Part shown: positions 11,998-48,755 of the stretch, piece by piece
Position numbering within the stretch: position 1 is the stretch's first letter
Layout: every line of letters starts with the position of its first letter
Assembly: GCA_964016885.1 (NCBI GenBank)
Contig: OZ024747.1
Location: 90,644,001-90,708,000, forward strand
Length of the DNA: 64,000 nt
DNA from: Eledone cirrhosa
Lineage: Eukaryota
Direction of reading: 5' to 3'
The notes under the pieces: generated by a model
What the model was told of the DNA's origin: nothing
Databases searched by the model: none
What the model saw: the letters and a program-made list of their open reading frames with translations, nothing else
Made by a program: the position numbers and the translations under genes

Positions 11998-12151
11998 TAT
12001 GTCCCTTTATGGTGATTTCTTATGAATGAAACAGTCCTAGTCCTGTAGAATCTCATCTATATTAAAACTTTTATACTCTGCTATGTATTAAGTACCTTAA
12101 TTACTGTGGTTACCTCCGATTCAACCCGTAATAATGTACCTATATATATAT

Positions 12152-12330
12152 AGTGTAGGTGATACAGAACAAACACTATATTTTGTCATATCGCCAGCCT
12201 GAAGAGAAGATTGATAATGATGTCAAGTCCAGAGCTCCTATGGGTGACCCTGAGCCAATTTTCTGTGAAACACACGTAACAGGTTGATACACAATAAAAA
12301 TCTAATACATATGAACGAAACTTGCTCATT

Positions 12331-13747: not shown

Positions 13748-14704
13748 TTAATTTAAAATCTTTTCTCAAACGCTTTTATATCCTTTACAAATATAGCCAT
13801 CTTTCTACCTTATTTCAGTATATTATATTATACAATTTACTCATTCTATGTCGTTAGCGGTCCCCTATTTTTCTTCTTTTTTATCCTTTTTTCTTTTTTA
13901 ATTTCTAATTTTTAATCTGTAACTTCTACTTCTCAATTACTTCTTAATTCATATTATAACTCACTATAGCATTTTCCTTATATTCTTGGCCATACACATT
14001 TTTATTTTTAATATATACTAATATTACCATTAGCAAATTTTGTAAACATATTTTTTTTGACGTTATATATTTTTTCTTCCTTAAATTTTCTTCTTTCCGT
14101 GCTCGTATTAAACCTATTATTTACTTTTTCCTATTACAATACATAGAAAAAAACTTGGACCCTAACTAATTCCTCTAAGTTCATAATTCAATTAACCTTT
14201 TCTTCATTCACCTTATCTCCTTAATATTTTTTTATTTTAATAATACATATTAATAAATTCCTTTTCGCACATATTATTAAACCCTTCAATATATAAACCT
14301 TAAATAAATACTATTCTTAATTCCTTTTTCTTTAATCATAAACATCACCATTCATAAACCTCATTAACTTTTAATTTCTAAATTTTTTAAAATTATGTAT
14401 TATCTTACGATTTTTTTAAATTTCTCTGTGTGAGACAGTGTTTCTCAGTATTAAAGGTTATCTCTCTCTCTTACTCATTTCTCCTCCTCTTTCATCCTTC
14501 CTTCTTATACCCCTCCTCCGTCATCCTTTCCTTATTATATATATATATATTTTTTTTTTATTATTATTTTCTTTCTTCCTCTTCCTTACCTTTTCCTTCC
14601 TTCTTTTTTTCCCCATCTCATATATCCCTCTTATTTTATTTTTCATATGTTGATTTAACACTTCACTGCTCGCAAGTGTTTTTAAGCTTCATATCATATC
14701 TCCC

Positions 14705-15568
14705 TATTTTATCTGATGAGAACGCAAATATCATCCCTGATTCCGTCAGGGAAATGGCCATGTTCGATATGCAGAAAAGGAACTGGCATAAATTCTATAA
14801 AATGCACACAATGCAGATCCTGGCTACACAAGAGATGTAGCGGGATAGCAGGCAAACTAACAGGTAGGGTGAAATATGTATGCAGTAGATGTACAGGGAA
14901 ATTAGACAGTAGAAGTCGCACTCATAGACACATTTTTCAAATGCAAAAGGGCGCTATAGAAGTGGTGGATAGCTTCCGGTACCTAGGAGATCAGATTAGC
15001 ATGGGAGGAGGGTGTTCCGAGGCCATAGTATCTAGAATAAGGACGGGTTGGAAGAAGTTTAGGGAGCTGCTTTCTCTGTTGACGAAGAAGGGTTTCTCCC
15101 TGCGTACGAAAGGCCGGTTGTATGATGCCTGTGTGAGGAGCGCGATGCTGCATGGTAGTGAGACATGGGCAGCAACTGCAGAGGATATGCGACGGCTGGA
15201 GAGAAATGAGGCAAGCATGCTCCATTGGATATGCAGTGTAAATGTGCGTGAATGACCCAGCATAAATGTGTTGAGAGAGAAACTGTGTCTGAGAGGGATA
15301 GAATGTAGTGTACGGGAGAGGAGACTGAGGTGGTATGGACATGTGATGTGCATGGAGGATGACCGATGGGTGAAGAAGTGCCAGGAATTGCCAGTTGAAG
15401 GAAGACGTGGTAGAGGTAGACCACGAAAAACATGGGCGGAGGTGGTGAGAACAGACCTCAGATCATTGAAGCTCACGGTGGAGATGACGAGGGACCGTGA
15501 CGAGTGGAGAGATGCTGTGCTGAATAAGACCCGTCCCACCCTTGCAAGCAGGGAAAGGCGGACGTAAA

Positions 15569-20553: not shown

Positions 20554-21468
20554 TCTATATATATAAAACTGTGGTTGTCTGTCTGTCTATCGATTTTTGG
20601 CACACATCTCCTCTTAGAATCTCTCACGGAATTGCACCGAAATTGCTATACTTGTACATTGAGCCCTAGCGAAGACTTAAGAAAAAAAAAAATTTCAAAT
20701 TCACCCACCCTATGTGACGAAATCGAATATAATGTATCGATTTTTGAGCGTAAGTTATCAGTTATTTCCCTTTGTTCTGTTTACATTGAGCGTCTTACGT
20801 AAAAAATTACGCTGGCTTTAACAGTTGTCGAGCCAGCAAAATATTGACCTGCAAAATTCATCAGTTCGAACACTAAGCTTCCGTTTTGCTTCATTTCCAT
20901 TTAAAAGCATTTTAAAACAATATTTTTACTTGAAAACAAGTCTATTTAAAGACTACGTAAAACAAGCAAATATTTCGTCGTTAGGCGTGCAGACAGACAG
21001 TCGTGCAGAGAGGTGATATACGCGTGCAGACAGACAGTCGTGCAGAGAGGTGATATAGGCGTGCAGACAGACAGTCGTGCAGAGAGGTGATATAGGCGTG
21101 CAGACAGACAGTCGTGCAGAGAGACAGTCGTGCAGAGAGGTGATATAGGCGTGCAGACAGACATAACTGATAATTTGGTTACGCTAATGTTTTTCTCTGC
21201 GTTGCAGTGTTTACATTTTCGATCTTTGTTAATAAATAACCAGTGCAGTTTCTATCCCCAGCATCCTCTTTTGTTATAACATTCGGGTTATCGTTATGTT
21301 TTCTTAACTTCATAAGGCATATTGTTGGTTGAGGGAATATTAATCAAAAACACCACATGCAAGTCTGCACCGTAGACACTACAGTTTTTAAGCCAAAAAA
21401 GAAACTTAACATTGTAACTTTAACACAGCTACTGAGCGACCCCGAGCAACGCCGGGCTTTACTGCTAG
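20554..21468 (+). mobile_element. non-autonomous Helitron
   Basis: A|TCTATATATATAAAA start, GTCT microsatellite, 3' hairpin CCCGAGCAACGCCGGG then CTAG|T. Confidence 0.8.
20982..21163. repeat. 37-bp tandem repeat inside Helitron (~4.5 copies)
   Basis: GTGCAGACAGACAG at 20987, 21024, 21061, 21098. Confidence 0.9.
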
Positions 21469-21540: not shown

Positions 21541-21573
<33 letters not shown>

Positions 21574-21575
<2 letters not shown>

Positions 21576-22619
21576 TAAAGACATAGAATATTCGAAAATA
21601 TTCTGTATGTTTATAATAAACATTTTGAAGACCTAATCGCTATAGAATAGAATACGTCACGTATTACAATTAGATTCTCGATAAAAGCAAGGGAAGTAAT
21701 CTACGCGTTTCATTCTTGTTAGAATTCATCAGGACTACATATCCAGTGCTTTTATCGAGAATGACACAGTTAGAGACTTATAGAATACTTAGCTGTGTAC
21801 TGGAACTGGTTTGAAAGAGCGGTTGCCGGTCCGGCAGAAATTAGAAATTGGAATAAATGCTCTGAAATAGCGATATATATGTGAGTAAAGACATAGAATA
21901 TTCGAAAATATTCTGTATGTTTATAATAAACATTTTGAAGACCTAATCGCTATAGAATAGAATACGTCACGTATTACAATTAGATTCTCGATAAAAGCAA
22001 GGGAAGTAATCTACGCGTTTCATTCTTGTTAGAATTCATCAGGACTACATATCCAGTGCTTTTATCGAGAATGACACAGTTAGAGACTTATAGAATACTT
22101 AGCTGTGTACTGGAACTGGTTTGAAAGAGCGGTTGCCGGTCCGGCAGAAATTAGAAATTGGAATAAATGCTCTGAAATAGCGATATATATGTGAGTAAAG
22201 ACATAGAATATTCGAAAATATTCTGTATGTTTATAATAAACATTTTGAAGACCTAATCGCTATAGAATAGAATACGTCACGTATTACAATTAGATTCTCG
22301 ATAAAAGCAAGGGAAGTAATCTACGCGTTTCATTCTTGTTAGAATTCATCAGGACTACATATCCAGTGCTTTTATCGAGAATGACACAGTTAGAGACTTA
22401 TAGAATACTTAGCTGTGTACTGGAACTGGTTTGAAAGAGCGGTTGCCGGTCCGGCAGAAATTAGAAATTGGAATAAATGCTCTGAAATAGCGATATATAT
22501 GTGAGTAAAGACATAGAATATTCGAAAATATTCTGTATGTTTATAATAAACATTTTGAAGACCTAATCGCTATAGAATAGAATACGTCACGTATTACAAT
22601 TAGATTCTCGATAAAAGCA
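21574..22619 (-). repeat. 310-bp hammerhead-bearing tandem array, inverted left arm (~3.4 units)
   Basis: GTGAGTAAAG at 21881, 22191, 22501; reverse complement of the right arm. Confidence 0.97.
21696..21738 (-). ncRNA. minimal type I hammerhead ribozyme (also 22006-22048, 22316-22358)
   Basis: Reverse complement of the motif at 22749-22791. Confidence 0.9.
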
Positions 22620-25600
22620 TTTCAGAGCATTTATTCCAATTTCTAATTTCTGCCGGACCGGCAACCGCTCTTTCAAACCAGTTCCAGTACACAGCTAAGT
22701 ATTCTATAAGTCTCTAACTGTGTCATTCTCGATAAAAGCACTGGATATGTAGTCCTGATGAATTCTAACAAGAATGAAACGCGTAGATTACTTCCCTTGC
22801 TTTTATCGAGAATCTAATTGTAATACGTGACGTATTCTATTCTATAGCGATTAGGTCTTCAAAATGTTTATTATAAACATACAGAATATTTTCGAATATT
22901 CTATGTCTTTACTCACATATATATCGCTATTTCAGAGCATTTATTCCAATTTCTAATTTCTGCCGGACCGGCAACCGCTCTTTCAAACCAGTTCCAGTAC
23001 ACAGCTAAGTATTCTATAAGTCTCTAACTGTGTCATTCTCGATAAAAGCACTGGATATGTAGTCCTGATGAATTCTAACAAGAATGAAACGCGTAGATTA
23101 CTTCCCTTGCTTTTATCGAGAATCTAATTGTAATACGTGACGTATTCTATTCTATAGCGATTAGGTCTTCAAAATGTTTATTATAAACATACAGAATATT
23201 TTCGAATATTCTATGTCTTTACTCACATATATATCGCTATTTCAGAGCATTTATTCCAATTTCTAATTTCTGCCGGACCGGCAACCGCTCTTTCAAACCA
23301 GTTCCAGTACACAGCTAAGTATTCTATAAGTCTCTAACTGTGTCATTCTCGATAAAAGCACTGGATATGTAGTCCTGATGAATTCTAACAAGAATGAAAC
23401 GCGTAGATTACTTCCCTTGCTTTTATCGAGAATCTAATTGTAATACGTGACGTATTCTATTCTATAGCGATTAGGTCTTCAAAATGTTTATTATAAACAT
23501 ACAGAATATTTTCGAATATTCTATGTCTTTACTCACATATATATCGCTATTTCAGAGCATTTATTCCAATTTCTAATTTCTGCCGGACCGGCAACCGCTC
23601 TTTCAAACCAGTTCCAGTACACAGCTAAGTATTCTATAAGTCTCTAACTGTGTCATTCTCGATAAAAGCACTGGATATGTAGTCCTGATGAATTCTAACA
23701 AGAATGAAACGCGTAGATTACTTCCCTTGCTTTTATCGAGAATCTAATTGTAATACGTGACGTATTCTATTCTATAGCGATTAGGTCTTCAAAATGTTTA
23801 TTATAAACATACAGAATATTTTCGAATATTCTATGTCTTTACTCACATATATATCGCTATTTCAGAGCATTTATTCCAATTTCTAATTTCTGCCGGACCG
23901 GCAACCGCTCTTTCAAACCAGTTCCAGTACACAGCTAAGTATTCTATAAGTCTCTAACTGTGTCATTCTCGATAAAAGCACTGGATATGTAGTCCTGATG
24001 AATTCTAACAAGAATGAAACGCGTAGATTACTTCCCTTGCTTTTATCGAGAATCTAATTGTAATACGTGACGTATTCTATTCTATAGCGATTAGGTCTTC
24101 AAAATGTTTATTATAAACATACAGAATATTTTCGAATATTCTATGTCTTTACTCACATATATATCGCTATTTCAGAGCATTTATTCCAATTTCTAATTTC
24201 TGCCGGACCGGCAACCGCTCTTTCAAACCAGTTCCAGTACACAGCTAAGTATTCTATAAGTCTCTAACTGTGTCATTCTCGATAAAAGCACTGGATATGT
24301 AGTCCTGATGAATTCTAACAAGAATGAAACGCGTAGATTACTTCCCTTGCTTTTATCGAGAATCTAATTGTAATACGTGACGTATTCTATTCTATAGCGA
24401 TTAGGTCTTCAAAATGTTTATTATAAACATACAGAATATTTTCGAATATTCTATGTCTTTACTCACATATATATCGCTATTTCAGAGCATTTATTCCAAT
24501 TTCTAATTTCTGCCGGACCGGCAACCGCTCTTTCAAACCAGTTCCAGTACACAGCTAAGTATTCTATAAGTCTCTAACTGTGTCATTCTCGATAAAAGCA
24601 CTGGATATGTAGTCCTGATGAATTCTAACAAGAATGAAACGCGTAGATTACTTCCCTTGCTTTTATCGAGAATCTAATTGTAATACGTGACGTATTCTAT
24701 TCTATAGCGATTAGGTCTTCAAAATGTTTATTATAAACATACAGAATATTTTCGAATATTCTATGTCTTTACTCACATATATATCGCTATTTCAGAGCAT
24801 TTATTCCAATTTCTAATTTCTGCCGGACCGGCAACCGCTCTTTCAAACCAGTTCCAGTACACAGCTAAGTATTCTATAAGTCTCTAACTGTGTCATTCTC
24901 GATAAAAGCACTGGATATGTAGTCCTGATGAATTCTAACAAGAATGAAACGCGTAGATTACTTCCCTTGCTTTTATCGAGAATCTAATTGTAATACGTGA
25001 CGTATTCTATTCTATAGCGATTAGGTCTTCAAAATGTTTATTATAAACATACAGAATATTTTCGAATATTCTATGTCTTTACTCACATATATATCGCTAT
25101 TTCAGAGCATTTATTCCAATTTCTAATTTCTGCCGGACCGGCAACCGCTCTTTCAAACCAGTTCCAGTACACAGCTAAGTATTCTATAAGTCTCTAACTG
25201 TGTCATTCTCGATAAAAGCACTGGATATGTAGTCCTGATGAATTCTAACAAGAATGAAACGCGTAGATTACTTCCCTTGCTTTTATCGAGAATCTAATTG
25301 TAATACGTGACGTATTCTATTCTATAGCGATTAGGTCTTCAAAATGTTTATTATAAACATACAGAATATTTTCGAATATTCTATGTCTTTACTCACATAT
25401 ATATCGCTATTTCAGAGCATTTATTCCAATTTCTAATTTCTGCCGGACCGGCAACCGCTCTTTCAAACCAGTTCCAGTACACAGCTAAGTATTCTATAAG
25501 TCTCTAACTGTGTCATTCTCGATAAAAGCACTGGATATGTAGTCCTGATGAATTCTAACAAGAATGAAACGCGTAGATTACTTCCCTTGCTTTTATCGAG

Positions 25601-27598
25601 AATCTAATTGTAATACGTGACGTATTCTATTCTATAGCGATTAGGTCTTCAAAATGTTTATTATAAACATACAGAATATTTTCGAATATTCTATGTCTTT
25701 ACTCACATATATATCGCTATTTCAGAGCATTTATTCCAATTTCTAATTTCTGCCGGACCGGCAACCGCTCTTTCAAACCAGTTCCAGTACACAGCTAAGT
25801 ATTCTATAAGTCTCTAACTGTGTCATTCTCGATAAAAGCACTGGATATGTAGTCCTGATGAATTCTAACAAGAATGAAACGCGTAGATTACTTCCCTTGC
25901 TTTTATCGAGAATCTAATTGTAATACGTGACGTATTCTATTCTATAGCGATTAGGTCTTCAAAATGTTTATTATAAACATACAGAATATTTTCGAATATT
26001 CTATGTCTTTACTCACATATATATCGCTATTTCAGAGCATTTATTCCAATTTCTAATTTCTGCCGGACCGGCAACCGCTCTTTCAAACCAGTTCCAGTAC
26101 ACAGCTAAGTATTCTATAAGTCTCTAACTGTGTCATTCTCGATAAAAGCACTGGATATGTAGTCCTGATGAATTCTAACAAGAATGAAACGCGTAGATTA
26201 CTTCCCTTGCTTTTATCGAGAATCTAATTGTAATACGTGACGTATTCTATTCTATAGCGATTAGGTCTTCAAAATGTTTATTATAAACATACAGAATATT
26301 TTCGAATATTCTATGTCTTTACTCACATATATATCGCTATTTCAGAGCATTTATTCCAATTTCTAATTTCTGCCGGACCGGCAACCGCTCTTTCAAACCA
26401 GTTCCAGTACACAGCTAAGTATTCTATAAGTCTCTAACTGTGTCATTCTCGATAAAAGCACTGGATATGTAGTCCTGATGAATTCTAACAAGAATGAAAC
26501 GCGTAGATTACTTCCCTTGCTTTTATCGAGAATCTAATTGTAATACGTGACGTATTCTATTCTATAGCGATTAGGTCTTCAAAATGTTTATTATAAACAT
26601 ACAGAATATTTTCGAATATTCTATGTCTTTACTCACATATATATCGCTATTTCAGAGCATTTATTCCAATTTCTAATTTCTGCCGGACCGGCAACCGCTC
26701 TTTCAAACCAGTTCCAGTACACAGCTAAGTATTCTATAAGTCTCTAACTGTGTCATTCTCGATAAAAGCACTGGATATGTAGTCCTGATGAATTCTAACA
26801 AGAATGAAACGCGTAGATTACTTCCCTTGCTTTTATCGAGAATCTAATTGTAATACGTGACGTATTCTATTCTATAGCGATTAGGTCTTCAAAATGTTTA
26901 TTATAAACATACAGAATATTTTCGAATATTCTATGTCTTTACTCACATATATATCGCTATTTCAGAGCATTTATTCCAATTTCTAATTTCTGCCGGACCG
27001 GCAACCGCTCTTTCAAACCAGTTCCAGTACACAGCTAAGTATTCTATAAGTCTCTAACTGTGTCATTCTCGATAAAAGCACTGGATATGTAGTCCTGATG
27101 AATTCTAACAAGAATGAAACGCGTAGATTACTTCCCTTGCTTTTATCGAGAATCTAATTGTAATACGTGACGTATTCTATTCTATAGCGATTAGGTCTTC
27201 AAAATGTTTATTATAAACATACAGAATATTTTCGAATATTCTATGTCTTTACTCACATATATATCGCTATTTCAGAGCATTTATTCCAATTTCTAATTTC
27301 TGCCGGACCGGCAACCGCTCTTTCAAACCAGTTCCAGTACACAGCTAAGTATTCTATAAGTCTCTAACTGTTTCATTCTCGATAAAAGCACTGGATATGT
27401 AGTCCTGATGAATTCTAACAAGAATGAAACGCGTAGATTACTTCCCTTGCTTTTATCGAGAATCTAATTGTAATACGTGACGTATTCTATTCTATAGCGA
27501 TTAGGTCTTCAAAATGTTTATTATAAACATACAGAATATTTTCGAATATTCTATGTCTTTACTCACATATATATCGCTATTTCAGAGCATTTATTCCA

Positions 27599-27603
<5 letters not shown>
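22620..27603 (+). repeat. 310-bp hammerhead-bearing tandem array, right arm (16 units plus ~24 bp); retrozyme-like
   Basis: TTCAGAGCAT every 310 bp from 22621 to 27581; only one substitution noticed (G>T at 27372). Confidence 0.97.
22749..22791 (+). ncRNA. minimal type I hammerhead ribozyme (repeats every 310 bp to 27399-27441; 16 copies)
   Basis: GTAGTC-CTGATGA-ATTCT-AACA-AGAAT-GAAA-CGCG-TA-GATTAC: stem I GUAGUC/GAUUAC, stem II AUUCU/AGAAU, palindromic stem III ACGCGU, predicted cleavage after GUA (22785). Confidence 0.92.
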
Positions 27604-27684
<81 letters not shown>

Positions 27685-27705
27685 CATACATACACAAACA
27701 CACAT

Positions 27706-27753
<48 letters not shown>
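27604..27753. repeat. (TA)n/(CA)n microsatellite, target of the array
   Basis: TA tracts on both sides of the array (21544-21573 and from 27604). Confidence 0.95.
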
Positions 27754-29575: not shown

Positions 29576-29645
<70 letters not shown>

Positions 29646-29750
29646 ATGTATATATATGTATATATATATATATGTATGTATATATATATCCTGGGTTCAG
29701 TTGGTGGGTAACCACAGTAAGTAAGGTACTTAATACATAGTAGAGTATAA

Positions 29751-29878
29751 ATATTTAATATAGAAATGGCTTCTACAGGACTAGATCTCTTTTATTCAAA
29801 GGAAATTTCCAAATTTCCTGATATTTCTTTCGATTGAAACAGTTCTAGTCCCGTAGAAGCCATTTCTATATTAAATAT
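29751..29878. repeat. 35-bp-arm inverted repeat
   Basis: ATATTTAATATAGAAATGGCTTCTACAGGACTAGA / TCTAGTCCCGTAGAAGCCATTTCTATATTAAATAT; partial homologue at ~12025-12065. Confidence 0.85.
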
Positions 29879-30084
29879 ATATATATATATATATATAAAA
29901 TTTTTTTTTTTTTGTCGTTTTGGAAGCAGATGGGTAAATCTCTGGGTAACAGAATCCGGTGGTGAAGAGAGAGATGTAAGAGGAAATGTAGAATGAGATG
30001 TATAGTGTGTAGAGGAACGTAGGAAAGAGCGTAAAAAATAAAAATAATACCACGAGATAGAGTTACCTTGGGAGAGATTTAATT

Positions 30085-30457: not shown

Positions 30458-30657
30458 TTACACCAGCCACCTCGTCTCGCTTCTCTCGGATCGGTTATTT
30501 ATTTGTGGTCCTAGGCGTTTGATCCAAAGTGCTTCCTTGATTCGTAACATGCCGACGTTGCGTTCTGTTGCTAGCACTGTGACAATGGGACTTCCGTCTT
30601 GTTTCTGCATTTGGTTATGTGTTTCCGGAAAGATGAGTCCCTGGTGTTGATGTGCTC
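30458..30657 (-). pseudogene. PLE GIY-YIG C-terminal fragment (frameshifted)
   Basis: EHINTRDSSFRKHITKC / VTVLATERNVGMLRIKEALWIKRLGPQINNR matches EH..S..H..C..LxIKEALxI..PxIN of Penelope/Poseidon-type endonucleases. Confidence 0.75.
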
Positions 30658-31003
30658 CTATATATATATATATAAGTAAAAGAGTGTGTGTGTGTGTCTG
30701 TATTTAAATTTATAAATAGGACATTGTGCATTTTATAGATTTGACTGTAGGGCATGTTCTCATGGTTTCAATTATTCAACCTATAAAAGTTAGTTAACCA
30801 TTTTTAGTCTAATACTAAATCTATTAATAGTAGTTTTGTCCTAAATCAACTATGATTTAGTAAACCCAAAAGAAATTCCAGTCATGAGCAATATTTATTT
30901 TTTGTCATAGCATATATCCAGGACTACATCATAAAGAATATGGGGTGTGTGATCTGAGGGAGATTTAGCTACAAATTCTACCAAGTCAAGCAATTACATA
31001 GAC

Positions 31004-47420: not shown

Positions 47421-48755
47421 AGTACAACAGATGCCCTCGTCTTGGTGAGACAATTACAAAAGAGGTTCTTAGAGAAGAATAAGCCACTATACTTAGCCTT
47501 TGTTGACCTAGAGAAGGCCTTTGATAGGATACCCCGATGTGTCATCTGATGGTCCCTAAGGAAACTAGGTGTTGAGGAATGCCTTATGAGGACAGTGCAA
47601 ACTTTGTACAGAGGTGCTGTCAGTAAAGTCAGAGTAGGAATGGAGTTTAGTGAGGAATTCCAGATACAAGTAGGAGTACATCAAGGTTCGGTCCTCAGCC
47701 CGCTCTTGTTCATTATAGTCCTCCAAGCCATAACAGAGGAGTTTAAGACTGGCTGTGCATGGGAACTTCTCTATGCTGACGATCTGGTTCTTATAGCAGA
47801 ATCAGTAGAGGAGCTAGAGAATAAATTCTGGCTATGGAAACAGCAGTTGGAAGCAAGAGGACTGAGAGTGAACCTAGCTAAGACAAAAGTGTTGATTAGA
47901 AAAGAGGACAAAACTCTGATTCCATCAGGGAAATGGCCATGTTTGATATGCAGAAAAGGAACTGGCATAAATTCTATAAAATGCACACAATGCAGACCCT
48001 GGGTACACAAGAGATGTGGTGGGATAGCAGGCAAACTAACAGGTAGGGAGAAATACGTATGCAGTAGATGTACAGGGAAATTAGACAGTAGAAGTCGCAT
48101 TGATAGACACATTTTTCAAATGCAGGCGGGTGCTACAGAAGTGGTGGATAGCTTCCGGTAACTAGGAAATCAGATTAGCATGGGAGGAGGATGTTCCGAG
48201 GTCATAGTATCTAGAATAAAGATGGGTTGGAAGAAATTTAGGGAACTGCTTCCTCTGCTGACGAAGAAGGGTTTCTCCCGGTGTACAAAAGGCCGGTTAC
48301 ATGATGCCTGTGTGAGGAGCGCAATGCTGCATAGTAGTGAGACATGGGCAGCAACTGCAGAGACATGTGACGGCTGGAGAGAAATGAGGCAAGCATGCTC
48401 CGTTGGATGTGCAATGTCAATGTGTGTGAACGACCCAATATGGATGTGTTGAGAGAGAAACTGTGTCTGAGAGGGATAGAATGTAGTGTGCGAGAGAAGA
48501 GACTGCGGTGGATGGACATGTGATGCGCATGGAGGATGACCGATGGGTGAAGACGTGCCAGGAAATGCCAGTTGAAGGAAGACGTGGTAGAGGTAGACCA
48601 CAAAAAACATGGGCAGAGGTGGTGAGAACAGACCTCAGATCGCTGAAGCTCACGGTGGAGATGACGAAGGACCGTGACAAGTGGAGAGATGCTGTGCTTA
48701 ATAAGACCCATCACACCCTTGCAAGCAGGGAAAAGCGGACGTAAAATGATGATGA
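47421..48755 (+). mobile_element. RTE-clade LINE, 5'-truncated (family 1), RT domain pseudogene
   Basis: STTDA..AFVDLEKAFDRIP, GVHQGSVLSPLLF, LLYADDLVL, NLAKTKVL; stops and frameshifts; (GAT) tail. Confidence 0.95.

Follow-up and report, generated by a model that had tools for sequence, protein, structure and literature searches.

The animal non-LTR retrozymes described by Cervera and de la Pena in 2020 (PMC7229834; PMC7761336) are low-GC, non-coding repeats of 150-450 bp with one type I hammerhead ribozyme per unit, and they share their genomes with Penelope-like elements (PLEs); both features recur in the 310-bp repeat reported here. Circular RNA has been demonstrated for the metazoan retrozymes (PMC7229834; PMC7761336). 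A review describes the retrozyme repeats as showing no motif that would indicate the mobilizing element (PMC7761336), and both the enzyme that moves animal retrozymes and the use of circular RNA as a template are given as open questions in the texts concerned (PMC7229834; PMC7761336; bioRxiv 2026.07.22.740005). The signature of PLEs is an inverted, 5′-truncated copy plus a tail of 30-40 bp that one of the ends carries (PMC8557442; PMC3846280), and two internal reverse transcriptase (RT) start sites, with both target strands being cut and extended, have been reported for them (PMC11167929).

The locus lies in a stretch of 64,000 nucleotides of Eledone cirrhosa DNA (the window). It is reasonably likely to represent a single young insertion of a hammerhead repeat that encodes no protein, in other words a non-LTR retrozyme, made by a PLE enzyme that used one 310-nt RNA, probably a circle, as the template when priming from both strands of the target. 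A fuller, more tentative proposal, in which each array is the two-way copy of one circle and the PLE family F5 supplies the enzyme (see below), would, if true, settle how animal retrozymes move and make circular RNA a genuine retrotransposition intermediate, and it would provide a natural system that turns small RNA circles into long concatemers within TA tracts. The family is very young, numbers an estimated 1,500 insertions or more, and gives its two start sites to a few bases; the two arms share one haplotype in almost every case, and an intact candidate enzyme is present in the same genome. Because an in vitro PLE assay exists (PMC11167929), the question of the mobilizing enzyme is directly testable. 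Tandem-repeat pipelines would report every insertion as two separate arrays and lose the footprint.

Array layout and the hammerhead fold

The array is comprised of two head-to-head arms inside a (TA)n tract, with a left tract at 21544..21573 and a right (TA)n/(CA)n tract at 27604..27753 (neither assigned a strand). The left arm (21574..22619, minus strand) contains 3.4 units and three hammerheads, with predicted cuts after 22322, 22012, and 21702 in the minus reading, while the right arm (22619..27603, plus strand) contains 16.1 units and 16 hammerheads. They are joined 5′ to 5′ at 22619, where unit positions 13 and 144 meet with a 1-nt overlap. An earlier note on this DNA had described one tandem array of 19, which has to be revised to 3 minus-strand and 16 plus-strand cores; its 310-bp unit in about 19.5 near-identical copies, on the other hand, was recovered as 19.45 copies with a lone sporadic mismatch (27372, plus strand, unit position 247) within about 6,030 bases. 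As the arms lie on opposite strands, a transcript could carry at most 16 sense hammerheads. The unit has a GC content of about 34%, within the range of non-LTR retrozymes (non-coding tandem units of 150-450 bp, GC below 50%), and no ORF of 100 aa, hence no RT/GIY-YIG ORF as in an autonomous PLE, was found within the array.

The reference unit, from cleavage site to cleavage site, is 22786..23095 (plus strand; unit position 1 = 22786) and corresponds to the predicted 310-nt monomer. The outer 3′ end of the left arm is at unit position 128 on the minus strand (site A, the tail-less end), and that of the right arm is at unit position 168 (site B, the tailed end). Family-wide, site A comprises unit positions 126-139 (22911..22924, plus strand) as the outer end of one arm and site B positions 163-172 (22948..22957, plus strand) as that of the other, with a tail of about 35 nt between them (22916..22950, plus strand). 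The inverted arms, the fixed outer ends about 35 nt apart, the (TA)n targets, and the genome-wide family had all gone unremarked in the earlier note.

The first type I hammerhead on the plus strand extends over 22725..22813. It is composed of a distal helix (22725-22740/22798-22813), stem I (22749-22754/22786-22791), the core (22755-22761), stem II (22762-22775), and GAAA followed by the palindromic stem III (22776-22785), all on the plus strand. The 19 cores, the pairing of stems I and II, and the predicted cleavage position given earlier (after 22785) were all reproduced; in addition, stem I was found to extend via an internal loop into a 16-bp helix absent from the earlier note. With regard to stem III, the proposed palindrome is present, but the 6-bp ACGCGU helix does not exist in the monomer, where stem III is a single A-U pair beneath a palindromic CGCG loop, and arises only in the dimer. 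The lowest-energy fold predicted for the dimer is a double hammerhead, in agreement with the suggestion of a dimer-type ribozyme. A single-pair stem III under a palindromic tetraloop is also found in axolotl HHR_Amex1, and most haplotypes here share with axolotl HHR_Amex2 a U-U where stem II begins (PMC7229834; PMC7761336). The first stem II pair, usually G-C, is A-U in 6/20 haplotypes and unpaired in 14/20, which counts against the main reading.

A hammerhead descriptor matched the unit once, one of 20,000 dinucleotide shuffles, and nothing in the rest of the window. The Rfam scan that the earlier note had proposed gave no family at the gathering score for the window, the best match being HH9, which scored 23 bits where 52 are required (E 0.0019). 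The presence of a type I hammerhead in every unit, as in retrozymes, is supported by the 19 cores with stems I and II and by the descriptor, at an Rfam score below that threshold. All 25 stem I pairs are preserved across 20 haplotypes, and 6/6 one-sided changes retain pairing; two-sided changes in stem I were absent among these 20, and the shuffle control of this comparison was uninformative. Site A lies in a predicted four-way junction (22843..22929, plus strand), which shows compensatory changes and is conserved in an older sister family; the junction is a likely RT-recognition domain.

The insertion footprint across the genome

The genome-wide search for dispersed arrays called for by the earlier note returned 747 B ends and 904 A ends as pattern matches on the forward strand, with reversed-pattern controls giving 0. 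The number of insertions is estimated at 1,500-1,800. Like retrozymes, they are dispersed in multiple copies without LTRs, their flanks being (TA)n; together with the non-coding 310-bp units and a type I hammerhead in each, this bears out the retrozyme anatomy proposed earlier. On contig C1, the B end is accompanied by an inverted arm that ends at A in 56 of 60 consecutive sites (53 called by script and L089 and L126 by eye; the A end of L080 lies just beyond the fetched stretch). The remaining four are L125, a two-armed site whose far end lies out of range, L077, which is an assembly gap, L116, with at least 28 units and no strand switch in 9 kb, and the single-armed L097. The two-armed layout, namely the head-to-head, inverted, 5′-truncated arm of PLE-type insertions, therefore occurs at 57/60 sites, and a PLE body replacing further units was seen at none of the 60. 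In a second sample of 31 loci picked by similarity, 25 were assigned to the A/B class by script.

The A ends fall at unit position 130 in 42/85 arrays and at 139 in 22/85, with TA microhomology, and the B ends at 163-172, chiefly 165 (53/85; the loci from C1 in this sample had been chosen for their B ends). A tail of 30-40 nt at one end only, as expected from two RT start sites in PLE-type insertions, is the result. TA-rich sequence flanks 83/85 B ends and 78/85 A ends, in line with a microsatellite target, within which target-site duplications are unreadable. Taken together, the inverted arms, their constant outer ends some 35 nt from each other, the insertion into (TA)n, and the spread of the family through the genome point to PLE machinery, and a PLE-type insertion is held here with high confidence; the arrays display the inverted-arm-plus-tail structure of PLEs with unusual clarity.

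Inverted repeats are also a known type of long-read chimera. Fold-back chimeras from sequencing or assembly, or a DNA route in which extrachromosomal circles are amplified by rolling circle and integrated, could account for the near-perfect identity of the units. However, 84/91 loci have one unique junction each, mostly between unequal arms and at unrelated positions, and the outer ends, set in (TA)n, occupy two constant positions in the RNA sense, a pattern shared with the protein-coding PLEs of the genome. The older sister family has the same outer ends, and the conserved hammerhead is explained by neither process, so that such an origin appears extremely improbable.

LINE-1 5′ inversions arise by twin priming, in which two target-primed cDNAs are joined head to head via microhomology; only some insertions are inverted, and priming of the second cDNA takes place next to the stop of the first. 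Here, in contrast, inversion is the rule, both starts are fixed, and the inner ends look random. Only 3/168 inner ends lie within 3 nt of the cleavage site (3.8 expected; KS p 0.14 for uniform), and those of the B arm fall in unit positions 120-150 in 8/85 cases, without the clustering at site A that LINE-type priming predicts. Twin priming of this type on linear RNA was accordingly rejected as the rule. Among 64 insertion-free junctions, 53% have microhomology of at least 2 nt (18% by chance), and 20 other junctions hold inserted bases.

Part of the unit is also present in 20/24 listed sequencing runs of other organisms (16 studies), including many unit variants at a depth of 1e5-5e5 in run X1 and one 340-nt contig each in runs X2, X3, and X6 (depth 18-34), and two further runs of organism F contain next to none of its words. 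These occurrences may be due to contamination, diet, or horizontal transfer, which are indistinguishable here, and no transfer is claimed. None of the 24 listed runs is recorded as RNA, and they have no bearing either way on expression.

Haplotypes and the nature of the template

Both arms agree at 13 diagnostic sites in 57/59 arrays; in the C1 subset, they agree in 37/38, as against 0.20 expected for independent draws, an expectation that takes no account of subfamilies possibly active at different times. A single template molecule for both arms is very probable. There are 34 majority haplotypes among 85 arrays, and among arrays with at least four units, 55/65 are without a shared minor variant and 10/65 are mosaics. 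In the window, variant T124 (22909, plus strand) is present in all units of both arms and is combined with C127 only in this array: the 3.0 Gb assembly contains 19 exact T124+C127 matches, all inside it. Variant A242 (23027, plus strand) is likewise found in all units of both arms and otherwise only in scattered units on other haplotypes. The recent origin proposed earlier is supported.

T232C is array-wide in L120 only, and single-unit matches to T119G and T232C sit on other haplotypes. For the three rare haplotypes that were followed up (the window, L120, and L106/L259), no donor unit was found in the assembly; such absence is weak evidence, because it concerns a single assembly and segregating insertions. 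In view of these donor-less array-wide variants, circles may also mutate or replicate as RNA. Two other candidates were discarded. C210A is not private to one array, since it marks a subfamily of 325 units, and cleavage-to-cleavage monomers with the right variants are not supplied by the mosaic array at C1:217.8 Mb, whose 8/8 C210A units also have G14A, which is absent from L088 and L267.

The preprint bioRxiv 2026.07.22.740005 favors satellite-like expansion in place, by which short PLE-style insertions would later grow through unequal crossing-over or replication slippage. DNA-level amplification does take place, as is shown by two very long mosaic arrays with higher-order duplication of variants (C14:25.20-25.27 Mb and C1:217.795-217.810 Mb), and minor variants are repeated in L084 and L116. 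As a general account, however, it seems very unlikely: arms of as many as 16 units are found even in the youngest haplotype class, with its sporadic divergence of 2.4e-4 per base, expansion affects the two inverted arms alike and they have array-wide variants in common, junctions and both outer ends are intact, and the predicted mosaics are limited to the 10 arrays noted above.

A second account retains the PLE machinery and its start sites and takes as template uncut linear RNA, namely a long read-through transcript from an array already in the genome, making the hammerhead dispensable for insertion. It is in keeping with the main in vitro substrate of the anole PLE, which is uncut RNA (PMC11167929), as well as with the existence of donor-length arrays (L116, L262-L264) and with L096, whose arms differ at position 276 in a pattern that fits a linear mosaic template; an uncut multimer likewise predicts no stop at the cleavage site. 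Copying of a multimer, however, transmits mosaics and cannot make a one-unit change array-wide, yet 34 haplotypes and mostly homogeneous arrays were observed, no other T124+C127 unit occurs in the assembly, and stem I pairing is preserved in 20/20 haplotypes. The missing cluster of B-arm inner ends at site A also speaks against it, and this account is considered rather unlikely.

A monomer circle is the somewhat more probable template. The 34 haplotypes, the 55/65 arrays lacking a shared minor variant, the confinement of T124+C127 to the window, and that of array-wide T232C to L120 speak for a bottleneck at the level of the monomer. Homogeneous arrays, array-wide variants, and the lack of an inner-end excess at the cleavage site lend indirect support to the rolling-circle reverse transcription suggested earlier. 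Counting against it are the use of uncut RNA by the anole PLE, for which the hammerhead is dispensable in vitro (PMC11167929), and the report of 8/9 Xenopus retrozyme dimers without cleavage (bioRxiv 2026.07.22.740005).

Briefly, a multimeric transcript would fold as double hammerheads and excise monomers, as the predicted fold suggests; by analogy with described retrozymes, these would be ligated to circles, where a stem III of one pair would make cutting inefficient. A GIY-YIG/RT protein would then nick both (TA)n strands and start at B (~165) and A (~130), the ends being observed and the enzyme proposed on the basis of PMC11167929. Each RT would traverse many unit lengths, consistent with the observed lack of a favored stop at the cleavage site, and the two cDNA ends would be joined via the short microhomology seen at junctions.

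Candidate enzyme and relation to known elements

A candidate driver is F5, a Neptune-type PLE that is young and intact and whose 38-nt tail matches that of the unit. Its protein comprises an RT and, at its C terminus, a GIY-YIG domain with a CX4CXXC finger, the label following the domain order and zinc finger described in PMC8557442. The protein has about 1,024 aa, its ATG lying at C1:83812988. All 150 scored copies (150 of 10,597 GIY-YIG candidates were scored) have 91-100% amino-acid identity, and the top 30 have a median nucleotide identity of 99.1%. F5 ends in (TA)n at two sites 38 nt apart, and 4/5 head-to-head copies with both ends seen are A+B. Its tail aligns in register with that of the unit (p 0.001 against shuffles; a 50-nt resemblance), in a match that was first spotted by eye and in one of five families tested; F2 gave p 0.04, and the sister family did not match (p 0.39).

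In 50 GIY-YIG loci, no PLE end was matched by a covariance model built on the A/B domain, the unit when aligned locally with 54 regions downstream of GIY-YIG sequences yielded only inserted small elements, and pLTR homology to an autonomous PLE beyond the tail was absent from the GIY-YIG loci compared. Among 30 sister-family loci, 29 are without a PLE ORF within 1.5 kb and the other merely abuts one. F5 is a possible driver. The fuller proposal, in which each array would be the two-way rolling-circle product of one 310-nt circle, copied from two fixed starts on both target strands by a pair of PLE RTs with F5 supplying the enzyme, is similarly tentative.

Retrozymes and their link to PLEs have already been proposed, and the two-armed footprint was not found described for retrozymes: no account of two-armed or tailed retrozyme insertions was met in the literature searched, and the supplements of PMC7229834 could show such structures. 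In a trematode, minimal hammerheads were reported to occur in pairs, on opposite strands and at a spacing of 100-700 bp, in passages that carry no reading as a PLE footprint (PMC4209133). Metazoan retrozymes are drawn as plain tandem repeats (PMC7229834; PMC7761336), whereas the insertions here consist of two arms in inverted order, end at fixed positions, and lie in (TA)n.

In architecture, the arrays resemble endonuclease-positive PLEs (Neptune/Nematis type, Naiad, and anole Poseidon PAc), which share the head-to-head, inverted, 5′-truncated arm, the one-ended tail of 30-40 nt, two RT starts downstream of the hammerhead, and microsatellite or AT-rich targets (PMC8557442; PMC3846280; PMC11167929). 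Unlike them, the arrays have no ORF, their arms consist of many exact 310-nt copies with a canonical hammerhead core, whereas the autonomous PLE families of the genome have degenerate cores, and both ends here come with some TA microhomology at site A. The conclusion that PLEs mobilize retrozymes was also reached by Li, Clavereau, and Pollet in 2026 (bioRxiv 10.64898/2026.07.22.740005), in whose text the words "tail" and "orientation" are absent and "inverted" occurs once, in a reference; their evidence, as far as that text presents it, is co-occurrence and pLTR similarity, whereas here it is the insertion footprint.

Structure of the array and its hammerhead

The array at 21574-27603 is composed of 310-bp units with 19 hammerhead cores and near identity (1 mismatch in ~6,030 bases), as the earlier note had claimed. 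The single tandem array that it described is instead two arms on opposite strands, a minus-strand arm of 3.4 units (21574-22619) and a plus-strand arm of 16.1 units (22619-27603), which meet head to head through their 5′ ends and overlap by 1 nt at 22619. A (TA)n tract lies on either side of the whole insertion. With 22786, the first base after the predicted cut, taken as unit position 1, the outer ends fall at positions 128 and 168. Other features of the window include two minisatellites unrelated to the unit (708-1676, 69 bp, 14 copies; 20982-21163, 37 bp, ~4 copies), LINE-like fragments with RT and PHD finger domains at 47550-48158 (+) and 14686-15252 (+), and a broken GIY-YIG fragment at 30485-30675 (-) resembling that of the element at locus L168.

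The hammerhead has a canonical core. Its stem I is 6 bp long and runs on into a helix of 16 bp, and its stem II has 5 bp (z -5.7). Its descriptor was matched by 1 of 20,000 shuffles and nowhere in the rest of the window. The Rfam scan proposed earlier returned no family at gathering score in the window, the best being HH9 (23 bits vs. 52 for gathering). The palindrome ascribed to stem III is present, but in a single hammerhead it yields just one A-U pair beneath a palindromic loop, and the 6-bp helix forms only in the dimer fold. For a two-hammerhead transcript, the predicted fold of lowest energy is the double hammerhead, in which stem III has 6 bp; the circular monomer is predicted to retain stems I and II only. 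These modelled folds fit multimer cutting and a stable circle, in line with an earlier proposal for such motifs (PMC4209133). Across 20 haplotypes, 25/25 stem I pairs are retained, with six one-sided changes, all preserving pairing, and no two-sided change; the first pair of stem II is unpaired in 14.

Insertion footprint across the genome

Penelope-like element (PLE) insertions have been reported to include a 5′-truncated copy in inverted orientation and, at one end, a tail of 30-40 bp (PMC8557442; PMC3846280). In work with purified anole PLE protein, both strands of AT-rich DNA were cut and extended, and reverse transcription began at two internal RNA sites, the tail being the stretch between them (PMC11167929). 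In the present family, each outer end is a 3′ end in the sense direction, at one of two sites ~35 nt apart in the unit, A (~130) and B (~165), and thus each arm reads as target-primed cDNA.

The window lies on contig G000:C7 (window start 90,644,001) of a 3.0-Gb assembly holding at least 447 unit matches (40 scored of 125 candidates), and the minus-then-plus layout recurs in 16 of 18 other arrays. Exact end patterns on the forward strand gave 747 matches for site B, 904 for site A and 0 for controls; 1,500-1,800 insertions were estimated from these counts because reverse counts were inflated by multiple counting. Among the first 60 B-end sites on contig C1, picked irrespective of the other end, 56 have an inverted arm terminating at A (53 by script, L089 and L126 by eye, L080 via an A-end pattern search). 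The other four comprise a two-armed insertion whose far end lay out of range, a gap, a one-strand run of >9 kb and a single-armed insertion. B ends fall at 163-172. Most A ends are at 130 or at 139, a position where the TA run of the unit itself makes the call ambiguous.

Inner ends (168, from 84 single-switch loci of 91) look uniform (p 0.14), and 3 of them map ≤3 nt from the cleavage site vs. 3.8 expected. Microhomology of ≥2 nt occurs at 53% of 64 insert-free junctions vs. 18% by chance, and 20 junctions have inserted bases. We hold with high confidence that insertion was of the PLE type. The window array is genuine: a retrozyme insertion of very recent date whose PLE footprint is clear. 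In one array, 272 nt of unrelated sequence lies inside the head-to-head junction (L085:3833-4104).

Site A lies inside a predicted four-way junction that is retained, with two-sided changes at 6/24 pairs, in an older sister family (L129:2424-2871, L178-L207, L158:21-219, L176:8963-9128; 3,074 first-look candidates, 95-97% alike). This family, whose arms are short, shares ~75% with unit positions 59-165 and has both end sites, again in (TA)n; its palindromic stem III differs from that of the unit. A third family, small and hammerhead-like (L169:4700-4830, L166:7590-7690), forms fold-back insertions in (TA)n, and similar pieces occur in the window at 12010-12152 and 29581-29897. Its reverse strand is similar to unit 226-265, so the region of the 16-bp helix may derive from an inverted hammerhead copy that has since decayed. 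Sequencing runs of three differently labelled organisms (X2, X3, X6) each hold one 340-nt unit contig of nearly identical haplotype, which may reflect contamination or transfer.

Template of the two arms

T124 and A242 occur in all 17 full units of the window array, in both arms, and A124 and G242 in all 147 normal-length units of the 18 nearest arrays. Every one of the 19 exact T124+C127 matches genome-wide is in the window array, and the A242 seen elsewhere was confined to scattered units of other haplotypes. At 13 diagnostic sites the arms agree in 57/59 arrays; on C1 they agree in 37/38, vs. 0.20 expected had each arm been drawn independently from the present haplotype mix. There are 34 majority haplotypes among 85 arrays, some from a single unit, and 55/65 arrays of ≥4 units contain no minor variant shared among their units. 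For a change arising in one unit to reach every unit of both arms, a one-unit bottleneck is required, most simply a circle.

One template quite likely served both arms, and a monomer circle is moderately favoured as its form. Against a monomer, L096 is consistent with a mosaic linear template, two very long arrays are mosaics generated at the DNA level, the anole PLE protein favoured uncut RNA (PMC11167929), and 8/9 Xenopus retrozyme dimers showed no cleavage (bioRxiv 10.64898/2026.07.22.740005). Of three further rare variants tested, C210A marks a 325-unit subfamily, T119G two homogeneous arrays and T232C one; no donor unit for any of these was found in the assembly, which, being a single assembly, gives weak evidence. 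The whole model, PLE-inserted retrozyme arms copied from a single, probably circular RNA, is on balance probable.

An older haplotype fills at least 65 kb of one strand at G000:C14:25.20-25.27 Mb (L051-L057), arranged in higher-order blocks that TA tracts interrupt; this is a retrozyme turned satellite. The two-armed insertion at G000:C1:217.795-217.810 Mb (L262-L264) has an A arm of ~46 mosaic units with recurring variant blocks.

Candidate driver and relation to known systems

GIY-YIG elements are abundant in this genome (10,597 candidates, 150 scored), and none of those examined has broad homology to the unit. F5, a young Neptune-type PLE family (exemplar L160), has two end sites in (TA)n, 38 nt from each other, and 4/5 of its head-to-head copies with both ends visible are A+B. 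Its last 50 nt align in register with the unit's A-to-B stretch (score 38 vs. 17.3 ± 4.9, p 0.001), a match noticed by eye before testing and in one of five families tested; the sister family does not match the F5 tail. F5 is a tentative candidate driver only. PLE families that carry RT and C-terminal GIY-YIG and have ends at (TA)n number at least five (L158, L160, L161, L164, L177, L244), four with hammerhead-like motifs of degenerate core. The F5 open frame is exactly 796 aa in several copies vs. 1,096 (L160) and 1,289 (L244).

By anatomy the unit, known here from DNA sequence, is a non-LTR retrozyme (PMC7229834). The proposal that PLEs and retrozymes are linked dates from 2020, and in 2026 co-occurrence and pLTR similarity were put forward in its favour (bioRxiv 10.64898/2026.07.22.740005). 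A review describes retrozyme repeats as having no motif indicating their mobiliser (PMC7761336). The literature searches turned up no description of retrozyme insertions with two arms and a tail; subscription papers, supplements (PMC7229834 and the preprint), Repbase or Dfam could contain one. The footprint turns the stated open question of retrozyme mobilisation into defined experiments, with cleavage, expression and circles remaining predictions. The unit is not an autonomous PLE; it resembles non-autonomous PLEs in its insertion footprint.
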